In this document: piece by piece, positions 9,523 to 48,912 of the stretch
Layout: every line of letters starts with the position of its first letter
Position numbering within the stretch: position 1 is the stretch's first letter
Assembly: GCA_019058245.1 (NCBI GenBank)
Contig: JAHPZJ010000010.1
Span: forward strand, 1-64,000
Source: Promethearchaeota archaeon
GTDB lineage: Archaea; Asgardarchaeota; Lokiarchaeia; Sigyniarchaeales; SOKP01
Direction: 5' to 3'
DNA: 64,000 nt
Made by a program: the position numbers and the translations under genes
Notes under the pieces: generated by a model
The model's input: the letters and a program-made list of their open reading frames with translations, nothing else
The model's database searches: none
Told to the model about the DNA's origin: nothing

Positions 9523-10623
9523 TTATTTTTTATTAGTTTGAGCTAATTTTACTTTTGCTTTCATAATATCTATATAAGCTGCTTGTATATTCAATGGTGG
9601 TATAGTCTCTTTCTCATTCATTTCCAATTTTATTGCATTTTCAGAACAAGTAGGAATACAGAGCCCACATCCAATACATCTTCCGAGGTTAATCTCACTA
9701 ACTCCATTAATTAAGGAAATAGCATCCATATTGCATCGTTCTTCACAAACCCCACATCCAACACATAAGTTCCGATCAATAATTGCATGATAGTTTGATG
9801 CAAATAATTCAGCAGGCCTATCAAAGCGTTTTTGATTTGTTAAAACCTCACAACAACAACCACAACAGTTACATATAAAATCAGGTTGTTGAGAGTTAGA
9901 TACTTGTGGAACTAATCCTGCTTCTTCAAAATCCTTTATCAATTCATAAGCTTTTTCTTTTGATATGAATTTTGCTTCTCCTTTTTCATAGAATATTTTA
10001 GCTGCTGCTCCAAATGTTAAACATGTTTCTCTGAGATCTGTTCTTTTACAAGGATCACCAATCATATCATGTGCTTTTCGACAAATGCAATCCATAATAC
10101 CGATTTCACTAGAAATATCTATTATCTTTCGAATCTTGTCATAAGATGCAATTGGTAAGTCAATGGGAATGGCTTGTTCAATAGGTACAGTGCGAGTTTG
10201 AGGGATTCCTGGAACGTTATATTCCTTTTTAAAATAAGCTTCTTCAAAATATTGGAAGATTATATTGATTAGTTCTGGTGTAAGACGCCCTAATTGGTAT
10301 TCATACATACCTGGAATTAATGCTGCAAGAGAATATAGCTTTTCATCATTATTCATGAGTCTTATAACAGTTCCGTTTTCATACATTTTCTCTAATATAT
10401 TCTCTAATTCCTCTAAAGAAATGTCATTATTCTTTAATCTTCGATAAATTTCTTCAAGTTTCTGCAGATTAAAATTTAGTTCCATTGCCAACTGAGCTTC
10501 TTCTTCATTAAATAGTAGTTTTAATAAACGAATTTCGACTCCAGATTGAGATTTTGGAATTCCTACAGGCATTTTATTAAAATGTTGCTGCAATTTAAAA
10601 TAAATGTTGTTATTATCATTCAT
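9523..10623 (-). CDS. 4Fe-4S ferredoxin-domain protein
   Basis: CICR, CNCCGCCC and two CxxCxxCxxxC motifs at C-terminus. Confidence 0.9.
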   Translation of the reverse strand: MNDNNNIYFKLQQHFNKMPVGIPKSQSGVEIRLLKLLFNEEEAQLAMELNFNLQKLEEIYRRLKNNDISLEELENILEKMYENGTVIRLMNNDEKLYSLAALIPGMYEYQLGRLTPELINIIFQYFEEAYFKKEYNVPGIPQTRTVPIEQAIPIDLPIASYDKIRKIIDISSEIGIMDCICRKAHDMIGDPCKRTDLRETCLTFGAAAKIFYEKGEAKFISKEKAYELIKDFEEAGLVPQVSNSQQPDFICNCCGCCCEVLTNQKRFDRPAELFASNYHAIIDRNLCVGCGVCEERCNMDAISLINGVSEINLGRCIGCGLCIPTCSENAIKLEMNEKETIPPLNIQAAYIDIMKAKVKLAQTNKK

Positions 10624-33971: not shown

Positions 33972-36900
33972 ATGGAAATAAAAATTCAAGGTGCAAAAGA
34001 AAACAACTTAAAAGATGTTAATGTAACCATCAAAGATGGACATACTGTGGTAACAGGTGTTTCTGGATCGGGGAAAACATCACTCATTTTTGATACATTA
34101 TATAAGGAAGCTAGACGTAGATTTTTAGAAGCATTTTCAGTCAGTAAAGAAGAAATAAAACTTAATCCTGCAAATGTGAGGTCAATCACTGGTCTAGGGC
34201 CTACTATCGCACTTAGTCAAAATGTGCTTAATCGAAATCCTAATTCTATTTTAGCATCGGCGATAGGTCTCATACCTTTATTAAAAATTCTATATGCTAG
34301 ATTTGGCGACAGGACATGTCATGTTTGTGGTTCTAAATTATCTGTATTAAAAGAAGATGAAATAATCGCGAAAATTGAGGGATTAAGGCATATCGAGCCC
34401 ATTACAATATCAGCTCTTTTAGTAAAAAAATCAAAAGGGAGTCATCAAACCTTAATTAGCCTTTTGAAAAAGAAATTCAGTTCTGAAACTCTCTTGGTAG
34501 ATGGAAAACCCATAATTTCAAAATTAAATCCAAAAAAACCTCATGATATTCAGATTCAAATTGGTCAAATAACAACTAGCACTGATATTAGTGAGATTAG
34601 AGATATAGTTGAAACTATCTCTTCATTAGGAGCAAATTCATTAATAATTAAGGGAAAAACATCTAATTTTCGAATTTCTCGAGTACCTGTATGTATGGAA
34701 TGCGGTACTTGGTACGGAGAGCTTGAACCAATGCATTTTAAGAAAAATTGTCCTTATTGTAAAGGAAAAGGGTGCAAGCAATGTAATCAAACAGGATATC
34801 ACCCCCTTGCATCTAATGTTACTTGGGAGGGTATGTTATTTCCCGAGATTCTAACAAAATCAGTTGGAGAACTAGTAACTTATTTCTCTAAAGAAGAACT
34901 CACAATTACAGCTAGGCTAATACAAGAAATAAAAAGGCGATTAATATCATTAAATTCTGTAGGATTAGAATATTTAGAATTAGATCGTGTTTCACCAACA
35001 TTATCTAGAGGAGAATCTCAAAGAGTTCGACTAGCTATAGCTTTATTGAGTGAACTAGAAGATATTACTCATATCCTTGATGAACCAACGATTGGTCAAC
35101 ATCCATCTGACGTCGCTCGATTACTGCCTATATTTCAGAATCTTGCTGGTCCGATAATTTATATTGAACATGATCGGCAAGCTGTTACGTATGCAGACAA
35201 TGTTATTGATATTGGTCCAGGAGCTGGAAGAGAAGGAGGTGAAATTATATTTACTGGAACTCCTGCAGAGTTATGGAAATCAGATACGTCTACAGGTAAG
35301 TTTTTTAGCTTGAGAGAACGGGTTATAATTCCCCAACATAGAGCTAAACCTCAACTTTTTTTAATAATTGAGAAAGCTTATAGGCATAATTTGAAAAATA
35401 TTAATGTTAAAATTCCCTTAAACCGACTAACAGTTATCACAGGTGTATCTGGTTCTGGAAAAAGTACATTGGTAGAAGATGTTTTATTTAGTTCATTAAA
35501 AAAAAAAGAACCAATAGGTTGTAATAAAATTACTGGGGTAAAGGTGATACCTATCATGGTAGATCAAGGACCTATAGGGAAAAATCCAAGATCAAATCCA
35601 GCTACTTACACTAAAATTGCTGATGTTATTAGAAAGCTATTTGCTAAAGCTACTGAATTTAAAGCTACGTTCTTTTCATTCAATACTCCAGAAGGCCAAT
35701 GTCCAACATGTAGTGGGATGGGTTCCCTCGAAATTAAGATGAGATACTTACCCTCTAATTGGATCACCTGTCCAGACTGTAATGGTCAGAGGTTTTCTGA
35801 AGAGATACTCGAGGAAAAAGTTCAGTTTGAAGATGATGAGTATTCTATTGCAGAATTCTATGATCTACCAATTTCAGAAGTTGAAAAAATTTTTGATAAA
35901 GAAAGAAGATTGACTGTTGGAGATCTTAATTCAGCAAGACAAATGTTGAAAGCGCTTAATGATATAGGATTAGGATATCTCTCCTTAGGGCAACCTTCTC
36001 CAACATTATCTGGGGGTGAAGCTCAGCGAATTAAATTATCAAAATATCTTGGAAAAAAAAATTTAAAAGATCATTTAATAATTCTTGATGAACCTTCAAC
36101 AGGATTACACTCTCAAGATTTAGCGGGGTTATTGACAATTTTAGATAGATTACTCCACATTGGAGCAACAATTGTGATCGTAGAACATAATATTGATATA
36201 ATTAGGGCTGCTGATTGGATTATAGACCTTGGTCAAGGTTCAGGACCAAATGGTGGTAAAGTTATGTATCAAGGTCCTTTAGATAAGTTCATGGAAACTG
36301 AAGAATCTCTTACTGCTCAAGCTTTAAAATTGGAAGAAAGTGTTACTCCATTAATCAAGAAAAAAAAGAAAATAAGAAAGAGTTCAGAACACATTATCAT
36401 TCAAAATGCTCACGTTCATAATCTTAAGAATGTAAATGTCAAAATCCCAAAAAAGAAATTTACTGTAGTCACAGGAGTTTCAGGGTCGGGGAAATCTAGC
36501 CTAATAATGGATACACTTGAAATGGAAGCAAGACGCAGAAATTTAGAAACTTTATCAATGTATGAAAGACAAAGTACCAAAGAAACTACCGAAGCGTTAG
36601 TAGAAAATATTCAAGGGTTAGGGATAACAGCATCAATAATACCAGAAAAGATTATCCATGGTTGGTTTTTAAACCTTCGAAATACCATAGGGAGGGTTAC
36701 AGATATAACACTCCATTTAGCGAATATATTTTCATATATGGGAGAATTATCGTGTCCTAAATGTAGTCAGAAAATGAAAAGAGAGGAAAAATGGTATTGT
36801 AAAAAGTGTAATATCTCATTACCTCTTGCTAAACCACGACATTTTATTTCTACAAATTATTCAGCAGCTTGCCTTAAATGTCATGGTGTTGGTTCATTTC

Positions 36901-38843
36901 AAGTTCCTAATCCTAATAAATTAATAGTGCACCCCAACAAACCTTTATGTAACGGTGCCATGTACTCTCCAGGTTTTTTTCCAAAAGGATATTTATGTAA
37001 ACCATATAATGGTGGATATTATATAGTTCAAGCTTTAGCAACTCGTTATGGTTTTGATCCTTTTTCAAAACCTTGGAATGAAATATCAAAAGAAGCAAAA
37101 GATGCATTTTTATTTGGAGATAAAGAAGTTTTAGATGTTGAATTTGAGAATAAGAAAGGTCAAATCTCTAGAAAATTAATTCAGTACCAAGGCTTTTATG
37201 GACACTGGTTAAGAGATTGGGATGTTGGAGGTACATATACAGATAATAAAACTTGTGATGAATGTAATGGTTTGAAATTACGTCCCCAATATCTTGCTAT
37301 CTCATTGGAAGGTTATAATTTACCTCAGATGTGCAATATTTCTTTGAACAAATTATATGGAATATTAAAAGAAGTAAAGATGGCAGATAATATTGCCGAT
37401 TTTGTAAAGAACAGTTATGAGATTATTTTAACACGTTTGAAATTTTTACTTAAAATTGGATTAGGTTATATTACTCTAAATCGTGTTTCTGAAAGTTTAT
37501 CTGCAGGAGAAGCTCAGAGAGTTCGGTTAGCTGGATTATTGGGTAGTGATTTGACATCTTTAACAATTTTACTTGATGAGCCCAGTAGAGGTTTATCTCC
37601 TCCAGAAATTGAAAATTTATTAGACATATTAAAAGAATTAAGGGATAACGGAAATACAGTCATAGTTATTGAACATGATCCTTTAATTATTAATAATGCT
37701 GATTATATAATAGATATGGGCCCTGGAGCGGGTGTAAATGGTGGAAAAATTGTTGCAAAAGGAACTATAGAGGATATAATAAAAGCAAAAACTATTACGG
37801 GAGACTGGATGAGTGGAAAAAAAAAATTTGAAGTATCTAAAAAACACCGAGAACCTAAAAAATGGCTAAAGATCTATGGTGCAAAAGAAAACAATTTAAA
37901 GGGGGAATTAATTGAGATTCCTCATAAATTATTAGTAGGATTATGTGGGGTTTCTGGTTCAGGAAAAAGTACTCTAATAATTGATACTTTGGGAAGAGCC
38001 TTGGTACCTATTAAGCATACAACATCAGTATCTCGAGAACCTATTGACCCGGGAGAATATGAGAAGATTGAAGGTACCTTACCTCAGACAATATTAATCG
38101 ATCAAACAAAAACTAAAATCGGAAGTCCTCTTAAATTTTTAGGATTAGAATCTCCAATAATAAAAATATTTTCTGAGACTGAAGATGCCAAAATTTTAGG
38201 TTTAGATGAAAAAAAACTAAAAAAGAGATGCTCTGTTTGTAAAGGGAGAGGTTATATCAAGATAGATATGAAATTTCTTCCCAATATTATTGAGACTTGT
38301 GAAACTTGTAATGGATCGGGGTATCAAATTGAAGCATGGCAAGTTCATTTTAAAGGAATTTCCTTGCCTGATATTAATAATTTAACTATTGAGGAAGCCT
38401 ATGAATTATTTGAAGAATATGAATCCATTTCTACTAAATTAAATTATGCTAAAAAAGTAGGACTACAATATTTACAACTAAATCAGCCTGCTCGCACTCT
38501 TTCTGGAGGTGAAGCTCAAAGACTTAAGATAGTAAAAGAATTATCTAAAAATTCTAAAAAAGAAACACTATATATCTTAGATGAACCGACTATCGGTCAA
38601 CACTTAGAAGATGTTTCTAAGCTAATTAATACTCTACATTTATTAATCGATAATGGCAATAGTGTAGTTGTTATTGAACATCATCCATATGTATTGGCTT
38701 CTTGTGATTGGCTATTAGAGTTAGGGCCAGGAGCAGGACCAGAAGGAGGCCATATAATTGCACAAGGACCACCTAGTGAAATAGCTAAATTAAACACTCC
38801 AACAGCACCATATTTAAAAGAAGTATTAGAGGGAGGAAAATGA
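33972..38843 (+). CDS. tandem-duplicated UvrA-family ATPase (four NBDs)
   Basis: Four GVSGSGK Walker A, four LS.GE.QR signatures, four LDEP motifs in 1623 aa. Confidence 0.9.
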   Translation: MEIKIQGAKENNLKDVNVTIKDGHTVVTGVSGSGKTSLIFDTLYKEARRRFLEAFSVSKEEIKLNPANVRSITGLGPTIALSQNVLNRNPNSILASAIGLIPLLKILYARFGDRTCHVCGSKLSVLKEDEIIAKIEGLRHIEPITISALLVKKSKGSHQTLISLLKKKFSSETLLVDGKPIISKLNPKKPHDIQIQIGQITTSTDISEIRDIVETISSLGANSLIIKGKTSNFRISRVPVCMECGTWYGELEPMHFKKNCPYCKGKGCKQCNQTGYHPLASNVTWEGMLFPEILTKSVGELVTYFSKEELTITARLIQEIKRRLISLNSVGLEYLELDRVSPTLSRGESQRVRLAIALLSELEDITHILDEPTIGQHPSDVARLLPIFQNLAGPIIYIEHDRQAVTYADNVIDIGPGAGREGGEIIFTGTPAELWKSDTSTGKFFSLRERVIIPQHRAKPQLFLIIEKAYRHNLKNINVKIPLNRLTVITGVSGSGKSTLVEDVLFSSLKKKEPIGCNKITGVKVIPIMVDQGPIGKNPRSNPATYTKIADVIRKLFAKATEFKATFFSFNTPEGQCPTCSGMGSLEIKMRYLPSNWITCPDCNGQRFSEEILEEKVQFEDDEYSIAEFYDLPISEVEKIFDKERRLTVGDLNSARQMLKALNDIGLGYLSLGQPSPTLSGGEAQRIKLSKYLGKKNLKDHLIILDEPSTGLHSQDLAGLLTILDRLLHIGATIVIVEHNIDIIRAADWIIDLGQGSGPNGGKVMYQGPLDKFMETEESLTAQALKLEESVTPLIKKKKKIRKSSEHIIIQNAHVHNLKNVNVKIPKKKFTVVTGVSGSGKSSLIMDTLEMEARRRNLETLSMYERQSTKETTEALVENIQGLGITASIIPEKIIHGWFLNLRNTIGRVTDITLHLANIFSYMGELSCPKCSQKMKREEKWYCKKCNISLPLAKPRHFISTNYSAACLKCHGVGSFQVPNPNKLIVHPNKPLCNGAMYSPGFFPKGYLCKPYNGGYYIVQALATRYGFDPFSKPWNEISKEAKDAFLFGDKEVLDVEFENKKGQISRKLIQYQGFYGHWLRDWDVGGTYTDNKTCDECNGLKLRPQYLAISLEGYNLPQMCNISLNKLYGILKEVKMADNIADFVKNSYEIILTRLKFLLKIGLGYITLNRVSESLSAGEAQRVRLAGLLGSDLTSLTILLDEPSRGLSPPEIENLLDILKELRDNGNTVIVIEHDPLIINNADYIIDMGPGAGVNGGKIVAKGTIEDIIKAKTITGDWMSGKKKFEVSKKHREPKKWLKIYGAKENNLKGELIEIPHKLLVGLCGVSGSGKSTLIIDTLGRALVPIKHTTSVSREPIDPGEYEKIEGTLPQTILIDQTKTKIGSPLKFLGLESPIIKIFSETEDAKILGLDEKKLKKRCSVCKGRGYIKIDMKFLPNIIETCETCNGSGYQIEAWQVHFKGISLPDINNLTIEEAYELFEEYESISTKLNYAKKVGLQYLQLNQPARTLSGGEAQRLKIVKELSKNSKKETLYILDEPTIGQHLEDVSKLINTLHLLIDNGNSVVVIEHHPYVLASCDWLLELGPGAGPEGGHIIAQGPPSEIAKLNTPTAPYLKEVLEGGK

Positions 38844-39874
38844 CCTGGATTCCACTTTTATTGACAGATCCATCATATTGTTTACGATTTTTGGTCTTAA
38901 CTGAATTGTTACACTTACCTCAAGATGATAATGAAGTCATTGAATTGTCAGAGATGCGGGAATCAGATCCACTTGTTAATGAATTATTCAAGCTCCAAAA
39001 AACTAATGGAGCATGGGATTCTTTTGGTGTAAATCGAATATCTTCAAGCGACAACCTTCAAATAACTTCTATGGCATTACAGAGATTAGGTTACTTCGGA
39101 TTTGATTCAACTCATCCAATGGTGCAGAAAGCAGCAGATTTTCTCTTTTCAAAACAGCTTGAAGATGGTTCTTGGCCAATGCCAGGCAAAAAACTACTTA
39201 CTGATGAAGAAATTGGATATCAGATGATGCCTGTTCAAACAGCAATTCCTCTTTTAGGTTTAGTTATGTGTGGATACTATACAGATCAAAGAGTTAAGAA
39301 TGCATTTGATTGGCTAATGAAACAACGTTTAGAAGACGGTGCATGGCCAGTAGGGATATCTGCAGGTAATTATGGAGGTATTGCGGGATACCGCCGTCTT
39401 GCCCATTCAAGATGGGGATGTCGATCAAATACTACAGCTGTGCTTACTTGTCTTGCTTATCATCCAAAATATAGCAAAAGTAATGAAGCTAAGAGAGCAC
39501 TTGATTTAATACTTGGAACTGATTCAAAGTTAAGAAGTAATCTTGGTTTTATAATAGCACGGCTAATTGGATTAGAAAGAAACCTTGGAAATATTACATT
39601 TATGGCAAAATTTGATATAGCCCATATATTAAATTTATGTTGGAGAGTTGGAGGAAGTAAAAATGATGAAAGGATTTCTGATTTGATCAACTTTGTAAAA
39701 TCTGAACAAGGAGAATATGGTCTATGGGATTATATAGCACATCCAAAAGCCACACGCTGGTTAACTTTTGATCTTTTATGTTCATTATCTAAATTAGAAA
39801 CTCAAGAAGACTGGATAAGTTTAGAACCACATACTCCTTTTAGAGCATATCCTAAGAAAATTAAACGGTTTTAA
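38840..39874 (+). CDS. prenyltransferase/squalene-cyclase-repeat (alpha/alpha toroid) protein
   Basis: QW-type repeats: LQKTNGAW, KQLEDGSW, QRLEDGAW, EQGEYGLW; no DxDD motif seen. Confidence 0.8.
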   Translation: MTWIPLLLTDPSYCLRFLVLTELLHLPQDDNEVIELSEMRESDPLVNELFKLQKTNGAWDSFGVNRISSSDNLQITSMALQRLGYFGFDSTHPMVQKAADFLFSKQLEDGSWPMPGKKLLTDEEIGYQMMPVQTAIPLLGLVMCGYYTDQRVKNAFDWLMKQRLEDGAWPVGISAGNYGGIAGYRRLAHSRWGCRSNTTAVLTCLAYHPKYSKSNEAKRALDLILGTDSKLRSNLGFIIARLIGLERNLGNITFMAKFDIAHILNLCWRVGGSKNDERISDLINFVKSEQGEYGLWDYIAHPKATRWLTFDLLCSLSKLETQEDWISLEPHTPFRAYPKKIKRF

Positions 39875-39891: not shown

Positions 39892-40464
39892 TTATATATA
39901 GGTATAAACAATCAATAATCCATCCTCAACTCTACCCGCTCCTTGTTCTGCATATGCATTAGCTTGGACTTTAAGTTCATAAGTTCCTGCAGTTAGACCC
40001 TTGATGATAAAATGTGTCGTTATGCTCTCAGCAACAGTAGGCCATGGGAAGTTAGAGGAGTCAGTAATGAAGAACCTTTCAGATTCTGGTATTGCAACGT
40101 TATCCCTCATTATTCTTACTCCTCCTGTAAGCCATCCTTTACCTCCAGTAGCACCATTTGAAATCTGAGCATTGAACATGACATAAACGGTTTCTCCTGC
40201 ATTCACAGTTATGGTAACATCCATATCCGTCATGTCACTATAACTACTTCCAGTATAAAAAGCCCCTGCTTGTTCAACAGTCCATATTTGAACGATTTCA
40301 GTTGGATTTTTATTATCATCTATTAATGTTTCAGTATTATCTGAAGCATTTTCAATAATTATATTCGGAAGAAAAATTACTCCATAAACTCCCATTCCAA
40401 CTCCTCCGATTGCAATTATTATAGCCAATATTGCTAGACCACTACCTTTTCCCATATTTTTCAC
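39892..40464 (-). CDS. membrane-anchored protein with beta-rich extracellular domain
   Basis: N-terminal TM helix; beta-sandwich-like tail (LTAGTYELKVQ). Confidence 0.7.
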   Translation of the reverse strand: MKNMGKGSGLAILAIIIAIGGVGMGVYGVIFLPNIIIENASDNTETLIDDNKNPTEIVQIWTVEQAGAFYTGSSYSDMTDMDVTITVNAGETVYVMFNAQISNGATGGKGWLTGGVRIMRDNVAIPESERFFITDSSNFPWPTVAESITTHFIIKGLTAGTYELKVQANAYAEQGAGRVEDGLLIVYTYI

Positions 40465-40850
40465 AAAATTTTCTGTTTTTAATAAATTTAGAATTAAATT
40501 ATATTACATTATATTTACAAAAATTTAAATGTAATTTTAAGAGATAAAAATTGTAAGAAAATGTCCAAATTTATCTCGTTAACAAATTTGAATGAATTTT
40601 ACGAGATTAAATTTGAACGGATATAATTATGAAAACATCACTCCATCATATACATTAATCTGCTTCTAATCTTAATAAAGATTTCAAGGTTTATCAAATT
40701 ATGTTTAAAGTGATAGTTTTATTTAATTTGAAAATAATAGGAGCTCGAAATGTAATGATTTTAATTGGAAAATCAAAAATTAATTTATTCGATCAAGCAT
40801 CTAAGGAGGAGGAGATATTCATACTTTGGGTATTAAAACCTAATTCAGAG

Positions 40851-40864
40851 AAAAATTTATAAAG
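40851..40864 (+). promoter_or_regulatory. putative BRE/TATA box of the leu operon
   Basis: aaaaaTTTATAAAG about 50 nt upstream of the leader ATG. Confidence 0.5.
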
Positions 40865-40914
40865 TTATAATCAATCTATTTTTATAATCATAAATTCTAA
40901 TAGGATTATAAATT

Positions 40915-41016
40915 ATGAAAGCTACTCAAAGTCTACTTATTTCTAGTAATAAAATAAGTTTGAGAGGTTTATTTCCATTAGAATTATTGAGTTTGTTATT
41001 ACTCTTATTATTATAG
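40915..41016 (+). CDS. putative leu operon leader peptide, 33 aa
   Basis: MKATQSLLISSNKISLRGLFPLELLSLLLLLLL*; 14/33 Leu, last 7 codons all Leu; AGGA SD-like motif; 87 nt upstream of leuA. Confidence 0.8.
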   Translation: MKATQSLLISSNKISLRGLFPLELLSLLLLLLL

Positions 41017-41019
41017 AGC

Positions 41020-41067
41020 GCCCTATTCCTTTCTAGAGCGTATTTTTCTTCTTGAAAGTATAAGGGC
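41020..41067 (+). promoter_or_regulatory. imperfect hairpin enclosing a T-tract after the leader peptide (candidate attenuator)
   Basis: GCCCT/AGGGC and CTTTC/GAAAG arms; tatttttcttctt inside; TAGAGCG repeated at 41014 and 41034. Confidence 0.55.
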
Positions 41068-41103
41068 TATATATTTTAAACAAAATTATAATAGGTTAAA
41101 AAC

Positions 41104-42726
41104 ATGGTTGGTAAAAACGATATTGCGGTTTCCGAAATGATGGAAAAAATTAGAGGATCCCTTATCCTCCCTGAGAGAGCATATTTTTTTGATACAACGC
41201 TCCGTGATGGGGAACAAACTCCAGGTATAAGTTTCACTCATAAAGAAAAGCTATCTATTGCTCAAGCTCTTAATGAGTTGGGAATTGATATCATAGAAGC
41301 GGGATTTCCTATTACATCTCAGGGAGATTTTGAAGCTTGTAGAGATATTGCGAAAATGGGTTTAGATTCTGAAGTGATGGGTTTAGCTAGAACAGCAAAG
41401 CCTGATATAGATAAAGTTATAGAGGCAGATATGGATAGTATACACCTATTTTGTGCCACTTCAGAATTGCATATGAGAGAAAAACTTCAATTAACTAGAG
41501 ATGAAGTCATAGAAAGAATAAGAGAAACCGTCTCATACGCTAAAGAACATTATTCTATTGTACTATTTTCAGCTGAGGATGCAACTAGATCAGATTTAGA
41601 TTTTTTAATTAAAGCTAACTTAACTGCTGTTGAGAGTGGGGCTACACGAATAAATATACCTGATACTGTAGGTACTATTTCTCCAGTAGCTTTTGGATAT
41701 ATTATACGGAAAAATTATGACGCCTTACCTAAAAATATTCGTATTGCGGCTCATTGTCATAATGATTTTGGTCTTGCTGTAGCAAATACTATTGCTGGGT
41801 TTGAAAATGGTGTTTCAGAAGCTCAAACAACAATTTTAGGCTTGGGTGAACGAGCAGGAAATGCATCTTTTGAAGAAACTTGTATGTCTCTTTATGCTCT
41901 ATATCAAATACCTATGAATATTAAAACAACAAAGATTTTTCCTACAGCTAAATTAGTAGAAAGTTTTTGTGGTGGGAAAGTCAGAATTGGTCGATTACAA
42001 CCCCTTATAGGGCAGAATGCATTTGCTCACGAAGCAGGTATTCACGCACACGCGATGCTACAACATGCGCGAACATATGAACCCATTACACCAGAATTAA
42101 TAGGAATTCACCGTACCGATGATGTGGAAGCAATTATAAAGCAATCAATAAAACTTGGAAAACACACAGGTGGTCATGCTCTTAAGGCTAAAATTAATGA
42201 CTTAGGTATTAGCCCTACTGATGAACAATTTACGAAAATAAGGCAACATGTAAAAAGTCTTGGTGATAAGGGGCATGAAGTTTCTGAAGAGGATTTTTTA
42301 GCAATTGTTAAAGATGTCATGGGGGAAATACCAAAAGAAGAACAATATGTTACTCTTGAAGAGTTAACTGTTTTGACTGGATCAGTTACACCTACATCAA
42401 CAGTTCGATTAAACATCAAAAATAATGGAGATATATTGCAAAAAGTAGCATCAGCAACGGGAGTAGGGCCTGTAGATGCCTCATGTAATGCAATTGTTAA
42501 ATGCTTTAAACCGATGAGTAAGATTGTACTTTTAAATTTTCAAATTGATGCTATTACTGGTGGAACTGAAGCATTAGGTCATGTTACCCTTGAAATCATG
42601 GATGTTGATAGTAATATAGTAGTCAAAGCTAGTGCGATTCATGAAGATATTGTTATGTGCTCTGTTCTATCTTTGATAAAAGGATTAAATCTAATTGTCA
42701 AGAAAAAGAGCATAACCTTAAATTAA
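41104..42726 (+). CDS. leuA: 2-isopropylmalate synthase
   Basis: DTTLRDGEQ, IEAGFP, PDTVG, HCHND, GLGERAGN, C-terminal regulatory domain GVGPVDA; operon context. Confidence 0.88.
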   Translation: MVGKNDIAVSEMMEKIRGSLILPERAYFFDTTLRDGEQTPGISFTHKEKLSIAQALNELGIDIIEAGFPITSQGDFEACRDIAKMGLDSEVMGLARTAKPDIDKVIEADMDSIHLFCATSELHMREKLQLTRDEVIERIRETVSYAKEHYSIVLFSAEDATRSDLDFLIKANLTAVESGATRINIPDTVGTISPVAFGYIIRKNYDALPKNIRIAAHCHNDFGLAVANTIAGFENGVSEAQTTILGLGERAGNASFEETCMSLYALYQIPMNIKTTKIFPTAKLVESFCGGKVRIGRLQPLIGQNAFAHEAGIHAHAMLQHARTYEPITPELIGIHRTDDVEAIIKQSIKLGKHTGGHALKAKINDLGISPTDEQFTKIRQHVKSLGDKGHEVSEEDFLAIVKDVMGEIPKEEQYVTLEELTVLTGSVTPTSTVRLNIKNNGDILQKVASATGVGPVDASCNAIVKCFKPMSKIVLLNFQIDAITGGTEALGHVTLEIMDVDSNIVVKASAIHEDIVMCSVLSLIKGLNLIVKKKSITLN

Positions 42727-42760: not shown

Positions 42761-44032
42761 ATGGATTTAACAATTAGTGAAAAAATCATAAGAGATCATT
42801 GTGAGCAAAAGGATCTTTCTGCTGGAGATTTTGTTTTAGTAAAAATTGATAAATGTTTAGGTAATGATATAACTGCACCAAAAGCTATAGAAGTTTTCGA
42901 AGAAATTGTTGAGGGAACTGAAAGAAGTGTTTTTGATCCAAGTAAGATAATACTTACACCAGATCATTTTACACCAAATAAGGATATTGCTTCGGCAATA
43001 CAGTGCAAAATTTTAAAAGATTTTGCAAGGAAGTACCACATTCAACACTATTATGAAGTAGGAAAAGTAGGAATTGAACATTGTCTTCTTCCCGAACAAG
43101 GATTAATTGCTCCGAGTGAGTTAATTATCGGTGCTGATTCTCATACTTGTACATATGGGGCATTAGGTGCTTTTTCTACTGGTGTTGGCTCAACTGATCT
43201 AGGTGTGGCAATGGCTCTTGGAGAATGTTGGCTTCAAGTACCTGAAACCTTGAGATTCAAATATACAGGTCAGTTAAATAAATGGGTTTCAGGTAAAGAT
43301 TTAATCTTGTATACTATTGGTAAAATTGGAGTTGATGGGGCAACATATAAGGTTATGGAATTTACAGGTGAAATTATCAACAACCTTTCTATGGCAAACC
43401 GTTTTACTATGTGTAATATGGCTATAGAAGCAGGCGCAAAAACAGGGTTCATTTTTCCAGATAAGATTACTGAACAATATCTAAAAAGTGTAGGAATTTC
43501 TAAATTTAAAACCTATGAGAATAATAATACAAAATATCATGAAAGTATTGAGATTGATTGTAATACTATTGAACCTCAAATAGCTCTTCCACATTTACCA
43601 AGCAATACAAAACCAATATCTGAAGTACAGGATATGCATATTGAAATTGATCAAGCTGTAATTGGATCTTGTACCAATGGACGAATAGAAGATTTACGGA
43701 TAGCAGCAAAAATAATGAAAGACAACAAGATTCACCCTAGTGTAAGATGTATTATCATTCCAGGAACTCCTACCATTCAATTTGATGCTCTTAAAGAAGG
43801 ATTAATTGAAATTTTTCTTAAAGCTGGAGCGATTGTATCTCCACCCACATGCGGTCCATGTTTAGGAGGTCATATGGGAATCCTTGCTCCTGGTGAAAGA
43901 GCAATTTCAACAACAAATAGAAATTTTATGGGAAGGATGGGACATAAAGATAGTGAAGTCTATTTATCAAATCCAGCGATTGCAGCAACTTCTGCCTTAA
44001 AAGGTTTTATTGCATCTCCAGAAAGTATGTAA
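42761..44032 (+). CDS. leuC: 3-isopropylmalate dehydratase large subunit
   Basis: DH, GADSHTCT.GA, IGSCTNGR, CGPCLG, STTNRNF.GRMG. Confidence 0.92.
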   Translation: MDLTISEKIIRDHCEQKDLSAGDFVLVKIDKCLGNDITAPKAIEVFEEIVEGTERSVFDPSKIILTPDHFTPNKDIASAIQCKILKDFARKYHIQHYYEVGKVGIEHCLLPEQGLIAPSELIIGADSHTCTYGALGAFSTGVGSTDLGVAMALGECWLQVPETLRFKYTGQLNKWVSGKDLILYTIGKIGVDGATYKVMEFTGEIINNLSMANRFTMCNMAIEAGAKTGFIFPDKITEQYLKSVGISKFKTYENNNTKYHESIEIDCNTIEPQIALPHLPSNTKPISEVQDMHIEIDQAVIGSCTNGRIEDLRIAAKIMKDNKIHPSVRCIIIPGTPTIQFDALKEGLIEIFLKAGAIVSPPTCGPCLGGHMGILAPGERAISTTNRNFMGRMGHKDSEVYLSNPAIAATSALKGFIASPESM

Positions 44033-44050: not shown

Positions 44051-44569
44051 GTGAAAAAAATGAAAGGTAAAGTAATTAAATATCCTCAAGAGAATATTAA
44101 TACTGATTTGATAATTCCTGCTCGATACTTAGTAGATATAAATCCTCAATTTTTAGCGGAGCACTGTATGGAAGATTTAGATATGGAATTTCATAAGAAT
44201 AAAAATAATCTTCAAGCAACAATTCTCGTCTCAGGTTCTAATTTCGGTTGCGGATCAAGCCGAGAACAAGCACCAATAGCCTTGAAAGCTACGGGAATAG
44301 AATTAATAATCGCTCCCAGTTTTGCACGTATATTTTTCAGAAATGCTATTAATATTGGTCTTCCAATTCTTCAATTTTCTGATATTGATGCTTTTAATAG
44401 TGGAGATCTGCTAGATATTGATTTTGGAAAAGGAGTTATAGAAAATATAACTACTAGTAAATCATATTCTTTTAGCAAATTTCCAGCTTTTTTACAGAAA
44501 ATAATTAAAGTTCACGGCTTAATAAATTTTGCAAGAGAACAAATTGCTAATTCAGAAGAGGGATCATAA
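44051..44569 (+). CDS. leuD: 3-isopropylmalate dehydratase small subunit
   Basis: NINTD.IIPARYL, NFGCGSSREQA, SFARIFFRN. Confidence 0.92.
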   Translation: MKKMKGKVIKYPQENINTDLIIPARYLVDINPQFLAEHCMEDLDMEFHKNKNNLQATILVSGSNFGCGSSREQAPIALKATGIELIIAPSFARIFFRNAINIGLPILQFSDIDAFNSGDLLDIDFGKGVIENITTSKSYSFSKFPAFLQKIIKVHGLINFAREQIANSEEGS

Positions 44570-45633
44570 TGAAAAAAATAATTGCAGTCACTCATGGTGA
44601 TGGATGTGGATTAGAAGTAGTAGAAGAAGGGATAAAGATTCTAAAAGCTATTTCTGAATATAGTGATTTTGATTTTGAATTTATAAACGCTCCAGCTGGA
44701 GGTAAAGTTTGGAAAGATTGTGGTGAAAGTCTTCCAGAGAAAACATTTGAAATTATTAAGAATTCTGATGCTTTATTATTTGGTGCTATTGGGCTTCCTG
44801 ATTTACCCCCTGGAATTGCTGAAACTGCAATCTTAAAGATAAGACAAGATTTAGATCTATACGTGAATATGAGGCCAATTAAGTTATATAATCCTCTACG
44901 TGATAGATGCCCACTTAGAGATGAATTTATAGGAAAAGGTATTGATTTCACTATTATTAGAGAAAATACAGAGGGAATATATAAAGGAATAGGAGAAATA
45001 TCAGATGAGAGGGCTGAAAGTGTGATGCTTTATACTAAAAAAGGGTGTGAAAGAATTATGCGATATGCTTGTGAATTTGCAAAAAAGAATGGTCATAAAA
45101 AAATTACATCTGTAGATAAAGCAAATGTTATAAAAGCAAGTCAATTTTGGCGCAATATCTTTCATAAAATTGGGGAAGATTATCCCGATTTAGAGAAAGA
45201 GGATGTCTATATTGATGCTTTTTGTCAATGGTTAATTCGTGCTCCTTATTCTTACGAAACAGTAGTTACAGGCAATATGTTTGGTGATATTACTAGTGAT
45301 GAAGGTGCTTTTCTGATTGGTAGTTTAGGAATGGCCGCCAGTGGAAACATAAATCCAGGAAATGTTTCAATGTATGAACCAATACATGGTTCGGCTCCTG
45401 ATATTGCTGGAAAAAATATAGCTAATCCAATAGGTACTATTTTAAGTATAAAATTGATGATGCAGGAATCGTTTAATTCGCCAGAAATAGGATTTTTAAT
45501 TGAAAAATCTGTAGAAGAAGCCCTTAACGAAGGAAGAACCATAGATATTGAGAATAAAGCTTTTAAGACTCTAACTACGAGAGAAATGGGGGATCTAATA
45601 GTAAAAAAGTTGATAAACTTGCTTAAAAAGTAG
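44569..45633 (+). CDS. leuB: 3-isopropylmalate dehydrogenase
   Basis: GDG.G.EV, RENTEG.Y, DKANV, NMFGDI.SD, EPIHGSAPDIAGK.IANP. Confidence 0.92.
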   Translation: MKKIIAVTHGDGCGLEVVEEGIKILKAISEYSDFDFEFINAPAGGKVWKDCGESLPEKTFEIIKNSDALLFGAIGLPDLPPGIAETAILKIRQDLDLYVNMRPIKLYNPLRDRCPLRDEFIGKGIDFTIIRENTEGIYKGIGEISDERAESVMLYTKKGCERIMRYACEFAKKNGHKKITSVDKANVIKASQFWRNIFHKIGEDYPDLEKEDVYIDAFCQWLIRAPYSYETVVTGNMFGDITSDEGAFLIGSLGMAASGNINPGNVSMYEPIHGSAPDIAGKNIANPIGTILSIKLMMQESFNSPEIGFLIEKSVEEALNEGRTIDIENKAFKTLTTREMGDLIVKKLINLLKK

Positions 45634-46152: not shown

Positions 46153-46181
46153 TGTCACCATATTGTGACAATATTTAAATA
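46153..46181 (+). promoter_or_regulatory. TGTCAC-N6-GTGACA palindrome adjoining the TATA box of the actin operon
   Basis: Perfect 6-bp inverted repeat at 46153-46170; TTTAAATA at 46174-46181. Confidence 0.65.
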
Positions 46182-46236
46182 TTATCGTTTTTATTTTAAC
46201 TATAAATTAATATTAAAAAAAAGAGGTGGTTTTAAA

Positions 46237-47382
46237 ATTTCAGTCAACGGGGATTTTAAAAATAATAGACCCATTGTTATAGATAATGGGACTGGTATAT
46301 CAAAAAATGGATTTGGAGGAGAAGATCAGCCACGCTCGGTTTTTCCAACTGTCATTGGTAAACCAAAGTATGGAAACATCATGCCTGATGTAAAGAATTA
46401 CAGCCGAGAATGGTATGTTGGGGAAGAAGCAATGGAATTAAAAGGGATCATGAATCTACAATTTCCTATTGAACATGGAGTTGTTGAAGATTGGCCAGCA
46501 ATGGAAAGGATATACCATTATACATTCTATACAGATTTAAGAATAGATCCTTCAGAATTTCCTGTATTGTTAACAGAAGCTCCATTGAATCCTAGATCAA
46601 ATAGAGAAAAAATGGCAGAAATAATGTTCGAAACATTCAATGTTCCTGCTCTTTATATCGCAACACAAGCAGTTTTATCACTATACGCTTCTGGTCGAAC
46701 TACTGGGTGTGTAGTAGATATAGGGGATGGAGTTGCACATATTGTGCCAATTTTTGAGGGTTTTGCTCTAAGTCATGCGATACAGAGAATAGATCTAGCG
46801 GGAAGAGATGTTACAACATATTTACAGAGATTATTACGTCAAAATGGATATTCATTTTATACATCAGCAGAGAAACAGATTGTTAGAGATATTAAGGAAA
46901 AATTATGCTATGTTGCTCTTGATCCTGAAAAAGAGATTATGCTCTCAAATAAAGTATCAGGGATGGCAAAAAATTATATGCTTCCAGATGGAGAGACTAT
47001 TACAATTGGACTTGAAAGATTCCTAGCTCCAGAAAGTCTATTCAATCCTTCTGTAGTAGGAAAGGAATTGCCTCCTTTAGATGAAGTAATCGTTGGTGCG
47101 ATTTCTGATTGTGATGTTGATCTTCGAAGAGATTTATATAGTAATATTGTACTCTCAGGTGGTTCCACCATGTTTCCGGGTATTAAAGAGAGATTAACTA
47201 GAGAGTTAAAAGAACAACTTCCTGAATCCATTGATGTAAAGATTATAGCACCGCCAGAAAGAATGTATTCTGTATGGATTGGTGGATCTATTTTGAGTTC
47301 CTTAAAGACTTTTAGTAGAATGTGGGTAAGTCGAAGAGATTACAAGGAAATGGGACCTCAAGTTATCCATCGATGTTTTTAA
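46237..47382 (+). CDS. Asgard actin (eukaryote-like actin family); probable ATT start
   Basis: [97 protein letters not shown] end; GAGGTG SD 8 nt before ATT; ORF-track GTG 46165 lies upstream of the TATA box. Confidence 0.95.
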
Positions 47383-47673: not shown

Positions 47674-48912
47674 ATGGAAAAAATGACACAAGCTCTAAAT
47701 GAATTAATAAAGTCAGAATCAAAGACTATTGCTGCCACAATCATTAAAGGTGAAAATGATATTGAGTATTCAACAGAGAATTGGGATATTAGCAATGATA
47801 TTGATGAGATTAATTTAGCTTGGGAATCAGAAGAATATAAAACACTTATTATTTCTAATATTAAATATGTAATTATCCAGCGTACTCCTGAAAGACTTGT
47901 TGGAATTGATCCTTCTAATAAAGGAGGAATTTTAGGCTTTAAAGATGAAGAGAGAAAAGTAATATGTAAGATTGCTCCTGATGGATTAAAGCGATTAGGG
48001 ATGATGGAAGTTTCTCGTATTTTAGGTAAGCTCAGTTCAAAAAAACCATATATTGATTTCGATACCCAATTAGGTAAAGTAGAAGAATTGAAATGGGCAA
48101 CTCCAAGAATTCTTCTTGATGATACAAATAATTTGCAGGAACTAGGATTACTAAAATTTGGATTAAGTATTGAAGAAGCTAAAGTATATTTGACATTGTT
48201 AAAGAGAGGTAAAGAGGGAGCAAAAGTTGGTGAATTAAATGAAGATCTCTCCATTAAAAGAACAACGATCTATCGTATAATTGATCGTTTAATCAGTAAG
48301 AGTTGGGTTATAAAATTACCATTGATGCCCAAAAGTGCGCAAAATTTTATAGCAAGACCCCTAAACGATATTCTCGATGAGAGAATTCAGAAAAAGGAAG
48401 AAGAATTAAAGATTCTAAAGAGTTTTCGCTATATCATGGGTGAGATACTAGAGAATGGATGGATAGATATCTCAGAAATTAAAAAAGATTTTCAATTATA
48501 TAGTAAAAAGGCTTTTGATTTTAACACTCTTGGAATTATGGGGGAGGAAAAGGATTGTGGTCTTATAATCTTTGAATACAATAAAAAAATAAAAGAAGAA
48601 GTAATAATTAAAGCGGCCCTACAACTATCATCCGAAAAAATGAGAGAACCAATACAACCCGATCTTGATAAAAAAAAATTTACAATCCCCGATCTTGAAG
48701 ATATAAAAATAGAAGATACCAAAATTCAAGATTATTTTGGCATGACAATGTATTTCAAATTTAAAGAAGGAACTGAAACGGGAAATAATGTTGGGTTGGG
48801 TTGGATAGTAGCAGCTAGGCATGTAGCTGTTCCTATTAAGAATAAGATCTATGTTGTTTGGGGATCCGAAGAACAATTTCCAATTTTATTAAGTATTATT
48901 TTAAAATTATAA
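47674..48912 (+). CDS. profilin-like domain fused to TrmB-type HTH and an unknown C-terminal domain
   Basis: N-terminal ~125 aa with Loki-profilin pattern (A.II....I.YSTENWDIS.DI...I.NIKY.IIQ.T.ERL.G....G.I.G); residues ~160-230 FGLS.EEAKVYL.LL......GEL...L.I.RTTIY.II.RL..K.WV. Confidence 0.75.
   Translation: MEKMTQALNELIKSESKTIAATIIKGENDIEYSTENWDISNDIDEINLAWESEEYKTLIISNIKYVIIQRTPERLVGIDPSNKGGILGFKDEERKVICKIAPDGLKRLGMMEVSRILGKLSSKKPYIDFDTQLGKVEELKWATPRILLDDTNNLQELGLLKFGLSIEEAKVYLTLLKRGKEGAKVGELNEDLSIKRTTIYRIIDRLISKSWVIKLPLMPKSAQNFIARPLNDILDERIQKKEEELKILKSFRYIMGEILENGWIDISEIKKDFQLYSKKAFDFNTLGIMGEEKDCGLIIFEYNKKIKEEVIIKAALQLSSEKMREPIQPDLDKKKFTIPDLEDIKIEDTKIQDYFGMTMYFKFKEGTETGNNVGLGWIVAARHVAVPIKNKIYVVWGSEEQFPILLSIILKL

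Follow-up and report, generated by a model that had tools for sequence, protein, structure and literature searches.

A conserved leucine-codon leader with two co-varying RNA helices upstream of leuACDB in a Lokiarchaeial genome, a probable ribosome-read sensor of leucine supply

Leader-peptide attenuation is a textbook bacterial mechanism, exemplified in enterobacteria by leuL-leuABCD, hisL, trpL, pheL and pheM-pheST, and a Rho-dependent form of leader attenuation operates at E. coli tnaC and Salmonella mgtL-mgtA. The nearest archaeal precedent known to us is a Met-Trp mini-ORF that has reportedly been proposed as a means of adjusting trpY translation in M. thermautotrophicus; it consists of two codons and precedes a regulator gene, in contrast to a structured leader in front of an operon. 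Control of archaeal amino-acid operons has been described for the TrpY repressor of Methanothermobacter and the Tar/TK0271 activator of Thermococcus (PMC6737238), which share with the locus described here a target among archaeal amino-acid biosynthesis operons but are DNA-binding proteins acting at initiation. A literature search with most subscription journals outside its reach found no archaeal leader-peptide attenuator, and archaeal Ribo-seq studies speak of uORFs in general terms only. For mycobacterial cys leaders, factor-dependent (Rho) attenuation has been proposed (PMC1262725). The Streptomyces leuA leader did not respond classically when its codons were changed (PMC1262725), so cognate codons do not by themselves prove attenuation.

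The window analysed here comprises 64,000 nt, positions 1 to 64,000 of contig JAHPZJ010000010.1 from a Promethearchaeota archaeon (Lokiarchaeia; Sigyniarchaeales; assembly GCA_019058245.1), and carries a leuACDB operon preceded by a 33-amino-acid ORF with 14 leucines. A first-pass annotation, made from the letters alone, had described an SD-preceded ORF of this length ending in seven Leu codons, together with a TATA box and a hairpin around a T tract, and all of these are present at the positions given below. The stop codon of the ORF is TAG (41014–41016) and its last seven codons read TTG TTA TTA CTC TTA TTA TTA. The leader SD, AGGA at 40902–40905, lies 9 nt upstream of the ATG, and the TATA-like sequence TTTATAAA (40856–40863) follows a purine-rich BRE at 40849–40855. 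The leader and operon comprise the following features:

40849–40863, + strand: BRE and TATA box, the putative archaeal promoter of the leader-leuACDB transcript, with the highest matrix score in the window (15.7)
40915–41016, + strand: leader peptide ORF (leuL-like), 33 aa with 14 Leu, rank 1 of 5,567 and found at 52 of 53 Promethearchaeia loci
40993–41013, + strand: putative Leu sensing run, seven consecutive codons up to the stop; Leu accounts for 422 of 588 tail codons over 49 loci
41068–41103, + strand: A-rich linker that includes the leuA SD (AGGT, 41093–41096) and has no conserved U tract or promoter motif
41104–42726, + strand: leuA, 2-isopropylmalate synthase (NF002085, 553.5 bits, over cut-off)
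42761–44032, + strand: leuC, isopropylmalate dehydratase large subunit (TIGR02083, over cut-off)
44051–44569, + strand: leuD, isopropylmalate dehydratase small subunit (TIGR02087 over cut-off; top score TIGR02084)
44569–45633, + strand: leuB, 3-isopropylmalate dehydrogenase (top match TIGR00169, E 3e-98, slightly under cut-off)

The nearest named LeuA loci belong mostly to Promethearchaeota (Lokiarchaeia) MAGs, some of which carry other Asgard labels, followed by Hadarchaeota at 42–46% identity, and we therefore consider leuA to be of archaeal type. These LeuA neighbours and an actin gene in the window are the sequence evidence for an Asgard host.

The BRE/TATA motif is positioned approximately 59 nt upstream of the uORF start, and at 25 of 30 divergent loci it exceeds the 95th percentile of random windows. 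A promoter motif directly before leuA was found at none of the 30 loci between -80 and -35, and at three of 30 between -50 and -5, and an internal promoter at this position was rejected on this sequence evidence. No promoter motif was found between 41016 and leuA, as the first-pass reading of the leader as part of the operon transcript would predict. As shown by the conservation of this arrangement, the leader and leuA are predicted to share one mRNA whose transcription starts upstream of the uORF. A search of the leader against Rfam returned no leader family (Leu_leader or related), T-box or riboswitch match up to an E value of 10, and the hairpin region is only 41% identical among representatives; a T-box or metabolite riboswitch was rejected on these grounds.

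When the 5,567 pairs of a small ORF and its downstream gene in the host genome were ranked by single-residue enrichment over the last 12 codons of each small ORF, the leu uORF came first (10 Leu in the last 12 codons, p 5e-9), and it was again the top candidate genome-wide once promoter score and hairpin energy were added. Leu-run uORFs had been expected before leuA in other Lokiarchaeia, and a Leu-ending leader indeed precedes leuA at 52 of 53 Promethearchaeia (Lokiarchaeia) loci, versus 0 of 13 outgroup loci. This count combines 49 loci that passed an automatic test with three recognised by eye, after the removal of duplicates, and the remaining locus has an assembly gap; among the first 30 loci, whose LeuA proteins are 76–100% identical, every one has the leader. 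Such conservation supports the central proposal of the first-pass annotation, that a Leu-codon leader peptide may exert ribosome-mediated, attenuation-like control over leuACDB in an Asgard archaeon.

Most leaders are 31–38 codons long, with a stop approximately 83–100 nt upstream of leuA in most loci, and an SD-like motif precedes the ORF at 27 of 30 divergent loci. The N-terminal two thirds drift freely; the Leu run is in frame without exception and extends up to the stop. In the tails of 49 leaders, Leu fills 422 of 588 codons and I, V, F and M together 21, such that 95% of the L/I/V/F/M residues are Leu, compared with 29% in hydrophobic stretches of the proteome. All six Leu codons are used, TTA at 72% versus 51% in genes, roughly half of the different codon changes seen at Leu sites are silent (21 vs 22), and the interruptions of the run are mostly S, N, D, E and H. 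This residue specificity and the use of all six codons point to selection for leucine at the end of the frame rather than for a membrane helix or for repetitive DNA.

Two RNA helices accompany the leader. Helix H1, which closes the leader's own SD region, goes beyond the first-pass account, and hairpin H2 is the structure described there. Their elements are:

40893–40905, + strand: 5' strand of H1, in the 5' UTR and including the uORF SD AGGA (40902–40905); folds pair it with 40974–40985, and the cognate duplex is stronger at 28 of 29 loci
40974–40985, + strand: 3' strand of H1, the codons immediately preceding the Leu run, assigned from folds and the cognate duplex test
41020–41067, + strand: hairpin H2, with a pyrimidine-rich 5' arm and a purine-rich 3' arm that co-vary; onset 0–4 nt past the stop at 48 of 49 loci
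41041–41053, + strand: U-rich tract in H2, a candidate pause or aCPSF1 signal on the basis of its sequence; a U4 or longer tract lies near the stop at 36 of 49 loci

No consensus emerged from RNAalifold when 33 leaders were aligned with MAFFT, the sequences being too divergent for in-register alignment, and co-variation was detected with alignment-free tests that compare cognate with non-cognate duplexes. These tests use representatives with less than 70% hairpin identity; their p-values count related genomes as independent and overstate the significance. For H1 the cognate duplex averaged -13.8 kcal/mol versus -8.9 for non-cognate pairs, and two control regions were null. The arms of H2 likewise co-vary (cognate -15.4 vs non-cognate -9.9 kcal/mol, 28 of 30 representatives with a mean identity of 41%); this test was run with fixed windows, as taking the 3' arm from the fold of each individual locus would be partly circular. 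The 62 nt past the stop fold better than shuffled sequences, with a median z of -3.8 and 40 of 49 loci below -2, and the 62 nt upstream of the stop fold no better than shuffles. H2 ends near +55 and its 5' arm is 82% pyrimidine. At the locus in the window H2 has an MFE of -14.6 kcal/mol and encloses the T tract; the folding of this one sequence, taken alone, does not reach significance (z -1.5). In the first 60 nt past the stop, U tracts occur at a frequency of about 1.0 per locus versus 0.2 in the linker, and 13 of 49 loci have no tract of U4 or longer there. A U tract after H2 is not conserved (median 4 T in the next 10 nt), and no terminator was found on the + strand of the region.

Several pairings that could have provided a switch showed no co-variation. 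The competing CTCT/AGAG stem over the Leu codons and stop, which the first-pass annotation had proposed, exists in the window but recurs at only six of 49 loci. Pairing of the Leu codons with the 3' arm of H2 was favoured at 14 of 30 representatives, and with the linker and leuA SD at 11 of 30 (cognate -7.5 vs non-cognate -7.9 kcal/mol); the 5' arm of H2 showed no co-evolution with the leuA SD either. A mutually exclusive series of co-varying helices (1:2, 2:3, 3:4) was not found for leu: H1 and H2 co-vary but do not compete.

Compared with the enterobacterial attenuators, this leader is alike in having a short, cognate-codon-rich uORF on the operon transcript followed by RNA structure, in an overlapping set of targets that includes pheST, and in an H2 that starts at the leader stop and resembles their 2:3 antiterminator. 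It differs in its BRE/TATA promoter, in a Leu run that reaches the stop and in the extra helix H1 over its own SD, and it is without a 3:4 terminator hairpin and U tract, a co-varying 1:2/2:3/3:4 series and an Rfam match. On this anatomy, the leader appears to work like the leuL, hisL, trpL and pheM attenuators but fails their structural criteria. By analogy, its logic seems nearest to Rho-dependent leader attenuation of the tnaC and mgtL type, where a leader ORF likewise has no intrinsic terminator and where ribosome position gates a pyrimidine-rich loading site for a termination factor, as it may here; the difference is that Rho was not found in the 76% complete host genome and that the candidate factor would be the nuclease aCPSF1/FttA. 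The actinobacterial LEU element (PMC1262725) and the mycobacterial poly-Cys 'ribulon' (10.1101/834739) share a cognate run close to the stop, no terminator and several loci under independent ribosome sensing, but there the codons pair with the downstream SD, whereas here that pairing lacks co-variation, no pseudoknot was seen, and it is H1 and H2 that co-vary.

The leu leader appears to belong to a set of at least six conserved cognate leaders in this genome, for Leu, His, Trp, Arg, Phe and Ile. The host carries a Trp-rich ORF upstream of trpDCFBA-x-EG, a His-rich ORF upstream of hisIE-G-D-C-B-H-AF, an Arg run upstream of argJBDCG, a Phe-rich ORF upstream of pheS-pheT-pheA and an Ile-rich ORF upstream of ileS. 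The Trp-, His- and Ile-run uORFs anticipated before cognate genes were thus found, and they are conserved in relatives. Trp leaders occur at 21 of 22 trpD loci (p below 1e-3 at 16 of them), His leaders at the 12 closest hisIE loci, the Phe motif at 24 of 27 pheS loci, Arg-rich leaders at five of six argJ loci, and Ile leaders at all three ileS loci, namely the host and both further loci. A His leader was not seen at 13 more distant hisIE loci, where the operon start was not located. In a specificity matrix, Leu, His and Trp are each enriched only before their cognate operon; the background expected by chance is higher for Phe and Arg, and for these two leaders it is therefore the aligned motif that constitutes the evidence. 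A hairpin located at the stop or just past it pairs off a pyrimidine tract in the Phe, His and Arg leaders too, and folds of these three leaders and of some Trp leaders suggest a 5' helix similar to H1.

No leader was seen before leuS, metG, aroA/aroC or argH in the host genome, argH having an upstream region of its own without an Arg leader, and this genome, 76% complete, yielded no ilvB, ilvC or aspartokinase match. LeuC-like genes that stand alone, nine in the host's family and three in other families of the order, have no Leu leader and may belong to another pathway. The leu, trp, his and arg genes are patchy across genomes of the host's family, and in the host the arg and his operons lie at most 20 kb apart on contig C30 (120845–128462 and 133967–141073).

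Some of these leaders exhibit variations of their own. Immediately downstream of the trp operon, and before a GNAT-methyltransferase fusion gene, lies a second Trp-rich leader ending in WFWVLHWHA (C6:112169–112246, - strand); the same leader type precedes trpD in three relatives (L061, L067, L069), and the second copy may be a relic of rearrangement or may mark a Trp-related gene. Around the stop of the Trp leaders there is a small co-varying hairpin (GGCGTT/AACGCC, GCGCG/CGCGC, GCACGC/GCGTGC); two blocks that are also conserved, CATTGG and CCAAT, lie approximately 100 nt apart and could form a long helix, and a short ORF often sits between the Trp leader and trpD. His leaders are unusually long uORFs of 43–60 codons and have a second conserved hairpin that adjoins or covers the hisIE SD. 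Between the Phe leader and pheS, about 70 nt upstream of pheS, a conserved BRE/TATA-like motif suggests that a basal internal promoter operates in addition to a leader-controlled upstream promoter. At ileS in the host (C31 ~10370–10390, - strand), a stop right after the GTG precedes the long frame, and relative L205 starts at an in-frame GTG; the host anomaly is possibly a sequence error or an unusual start.

Taken together, these patterns indicate that the leu leader is real and conserved, and very probably a ribosome-based Leu sensor belonging to a six-leader system, and there is little doubt in our minds that a ribosome translating the leader would be what gauges Leu supply. The output step is most likely premature termination. 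The complete model, in which this Leu gauge controls read-through into leuACDB and premature termination is its output, we judge somewhat likelier to be right than wrong. A first ribosome would load on the leader SD and, once it had freed the codons before the Leu run, H1 would close over that SD and limit reloading, as its co-variation suggests; the decision would then rest with the leading ribosome, and a second one would be kept from covering the C/U-rich tracts. With Leu-tRNA scarce this ribosome would linger in the Leu run, and with Leu-tRNA plentiful it would run on to the stop. From the geometry and the folding, a ribosome stalled early in the run should leave H2 free to close and hide its C/U-rich 5' arm; with H2 closed, only the A-rich linker would be left before leuA, and read-through would follow. 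A ribosome at the stop would instead cover the base of H2 and prevent its closure, and after its release the U-rich codons and the C/U-rich arm would lie bare beside RNA polymerase. That this bare RNA is then either cut by aCPSF1/FttA or gives U-tract termination, so that the transcript ends approximately 10–45 nt past the stop (roughly 41025–41060), is a step we hold to be evenly balanced between right and wrong. H2 would thus be the counterpart of the bacterial 2:3 antiterminator, with a factor or U tract in place of the 3:4 terminator. The first-pass suggestion that stalling may govern exposure of the T tract accords with this model. Because H2 starts inside the footprint of a terminating ribosome, it would mark the starved state and cannot be the terminator. 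In equilibrium folds, a ribosome at the stop raises the unpaired probability at +1 to +20 from 0.24 to 0.66, which is in part the footprint itself, and the upper stem of H2 survives, accessibility at +21 to +60 moving from 0.33 to 0.39; given this persistence, the switch must be kinetic.

What is known of archaeal termination is compatible with such a step. Archaea terminate at U-rich tracts and with the nuclease aCPSF1/FttA (PMC7515710, PMC9371683), and no archaeal genome encodes Rho (PMC9371683); a Rho match (TIGR00767) was not found in the 76% complete host genome. Cleavage by aCPSF1 falls downstream of U-rich motifs, and an ortholog from Lokiarchaeota is functional in Methanococcus (PMC7515710). 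The host genome encodes aCPSF1 and has a second, weaker match to the aCPSF family. FttA terminates transcription where ribosomes are not engaged with it (PMC9371683). Ribosome stalling breaks the coupling of translation to transcription, and this by itself should favour FttA; the model needs fast closure of H2.

The main rival to the termination model keeps the Leu sensor and places its output at leuA translation initiation: the U-rich Leu codons would pair with the A-rich linker and SD, H2 would juxtapose them, a stalled ribosome would free the SD, and any termination would be secondary polarity. Opening the leuA ribosome-binding site costs on average 5.5 kcal/mol without a ribosome and 3.9 with a stalled one, in the MFE fold of the locus in the window the SD region is paired with the Leu codons, a conserved hairpin adjoins the SD in the His leader, and the actinobacterial LEU element model (PMC1262725) and the mycobacterial poly-Cys sORFs (10.1101/834739) offer precedents. 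Yet neither the Leu codons (11 of 30) nor the 5' arm of H2 co-evolves with the pairing partner this would demand, the stalled and stop states differ by only about 0.6 kcal/mol in the Leu leader and are equal in the His leader, steady occupancy of the leu leader by ribosomes would be restricted by H1, and the Trp and Phe leaders end 120–500 nt ahead of the next start codon; we regard this reading as unlikely, though worth serious consideration. More improbable still is an output through mRNA stability, with ribosome position gating a nuclease (aCPSF1, aCPSF2 or RNase J) on the U-rich leader while H1 and H2 protect the message. It fits all of the conservation data, and both the endonuclease activity of aCPSF1 (PMC7515710) and the second aCPSF-family match are in its favour, but the closure of H1 over the leader SD appears to suit a one-time co-transcriptional decision better.

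The remaining explanations are hard to reconcile with the anatomy or the codons. As a classical bacterial attenuator, the locus would use H2 as an intrinsic terminator switched by a stem that includes the Leu codons; a leader peptide and a GC-closed hairpin are present, and archaeal RNA polymerase is responsive to intrinsic signals (PMC9371683), but H2 is about 50 nt long and lies under the terminating ribosome, the wrong logic for a terminator, no conserved U tract or + strand terminator follows it, and neither the Leu codons (14 of 30) nor CTCT/AGAG supplies a co-varying competitor. The anatomy thus appears largely to refute this reading, and we give it scarcely any credence. We consider it nearly as implausible that a protein or tRNA reads the RNA element in place of translation, the Leu codons being kept for pairing or as a relic. 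The non-classical behaviour of the Streptomyces LEU element on codon changes (PMC1262725) and the excess of TTA in the tails would fit; a frame of 31–38 codons retained in divergent sequences with its start, SD-like motif and terminal run, the share of synonymous changes at Leu sites, and six operons each with its own amino acid would not. That the peptide itself is the product, as a small membrane protein or LeuA regulator, or that the run is a TTA microsatellite, is likewise very hard to credit: the C-terminus is hydrophobic and TTA repeats are common at 29% GC, but isoleucine, valine, phenylalanine and methionine hardly replace Leu, the interruptions are mostly S, N, D, E and H, the N-terminal part is free to drift, the leader has no Pfam match, and matching His, Trp, Arg, Phe and Ile leaders exist. 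The membrane-peptide and microsatellite readings were rejected on Leu specificity, six-codon usage and an in-frame run ending at the stop, and the first-pass concern that the TTA run might be a non-conserved microsatellite is thereby answered.

Six conserved cognate leaders in Asgard archaea imply that ribosome speed may feed back on the expression of downstream operons, and they represent a class of small ORFs absent from archaeal annotation. If the output is termination, as we favour, they would provide genetic evidence for functional transcription-translation coupling in archaea, as well as compact natural substrates for competition between the ribosome and aCPSF1/FttA on nascent RNA. Translation-coupled attenuation would then act through a 3'-end cleavage factor homologous to eukaryotic CPSF73 in the prokaryotes closest to eukaryotes, which bears on the origin of eukaryotic uORF control and of 3'-cleavage termination. 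We tentatively extend the model, at slightly less than an even chance of being correct, to a genome-wide set of gauges in Promethearchaeia, for Leu, His, Trp, Arg, Phe and Ile, that end in premature aCPSF1/FttA termination, with an H1-type helix allowing only the first ribosome to load and a hairpin after the stop masking the cleavage signal.

Around the leu locus, the window contains several further genes. Divergent from the leader, 39892–40464 (- strand) encodes a 190-aa protein with an N-terminal hydrophobic segment and no Pfam or NCBIfam match. Further upstream, 33972–39874 (+ strand) encodes a 1623-aa, double-length UvrA-like ATPase and, with an ATGA overlap, a protein of 344 aa that bears a squalene-hopene cyclase C-terminal-like domain. 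Downstream of leuB lies an actin family gene (Asgard actin) at 46165–47382 (+ strand; PF00022, E 1e-128), followed at 47674–48912 (+ strand) by a gene encoding a 412-aa protein with a central TrmB-type HTH domain.
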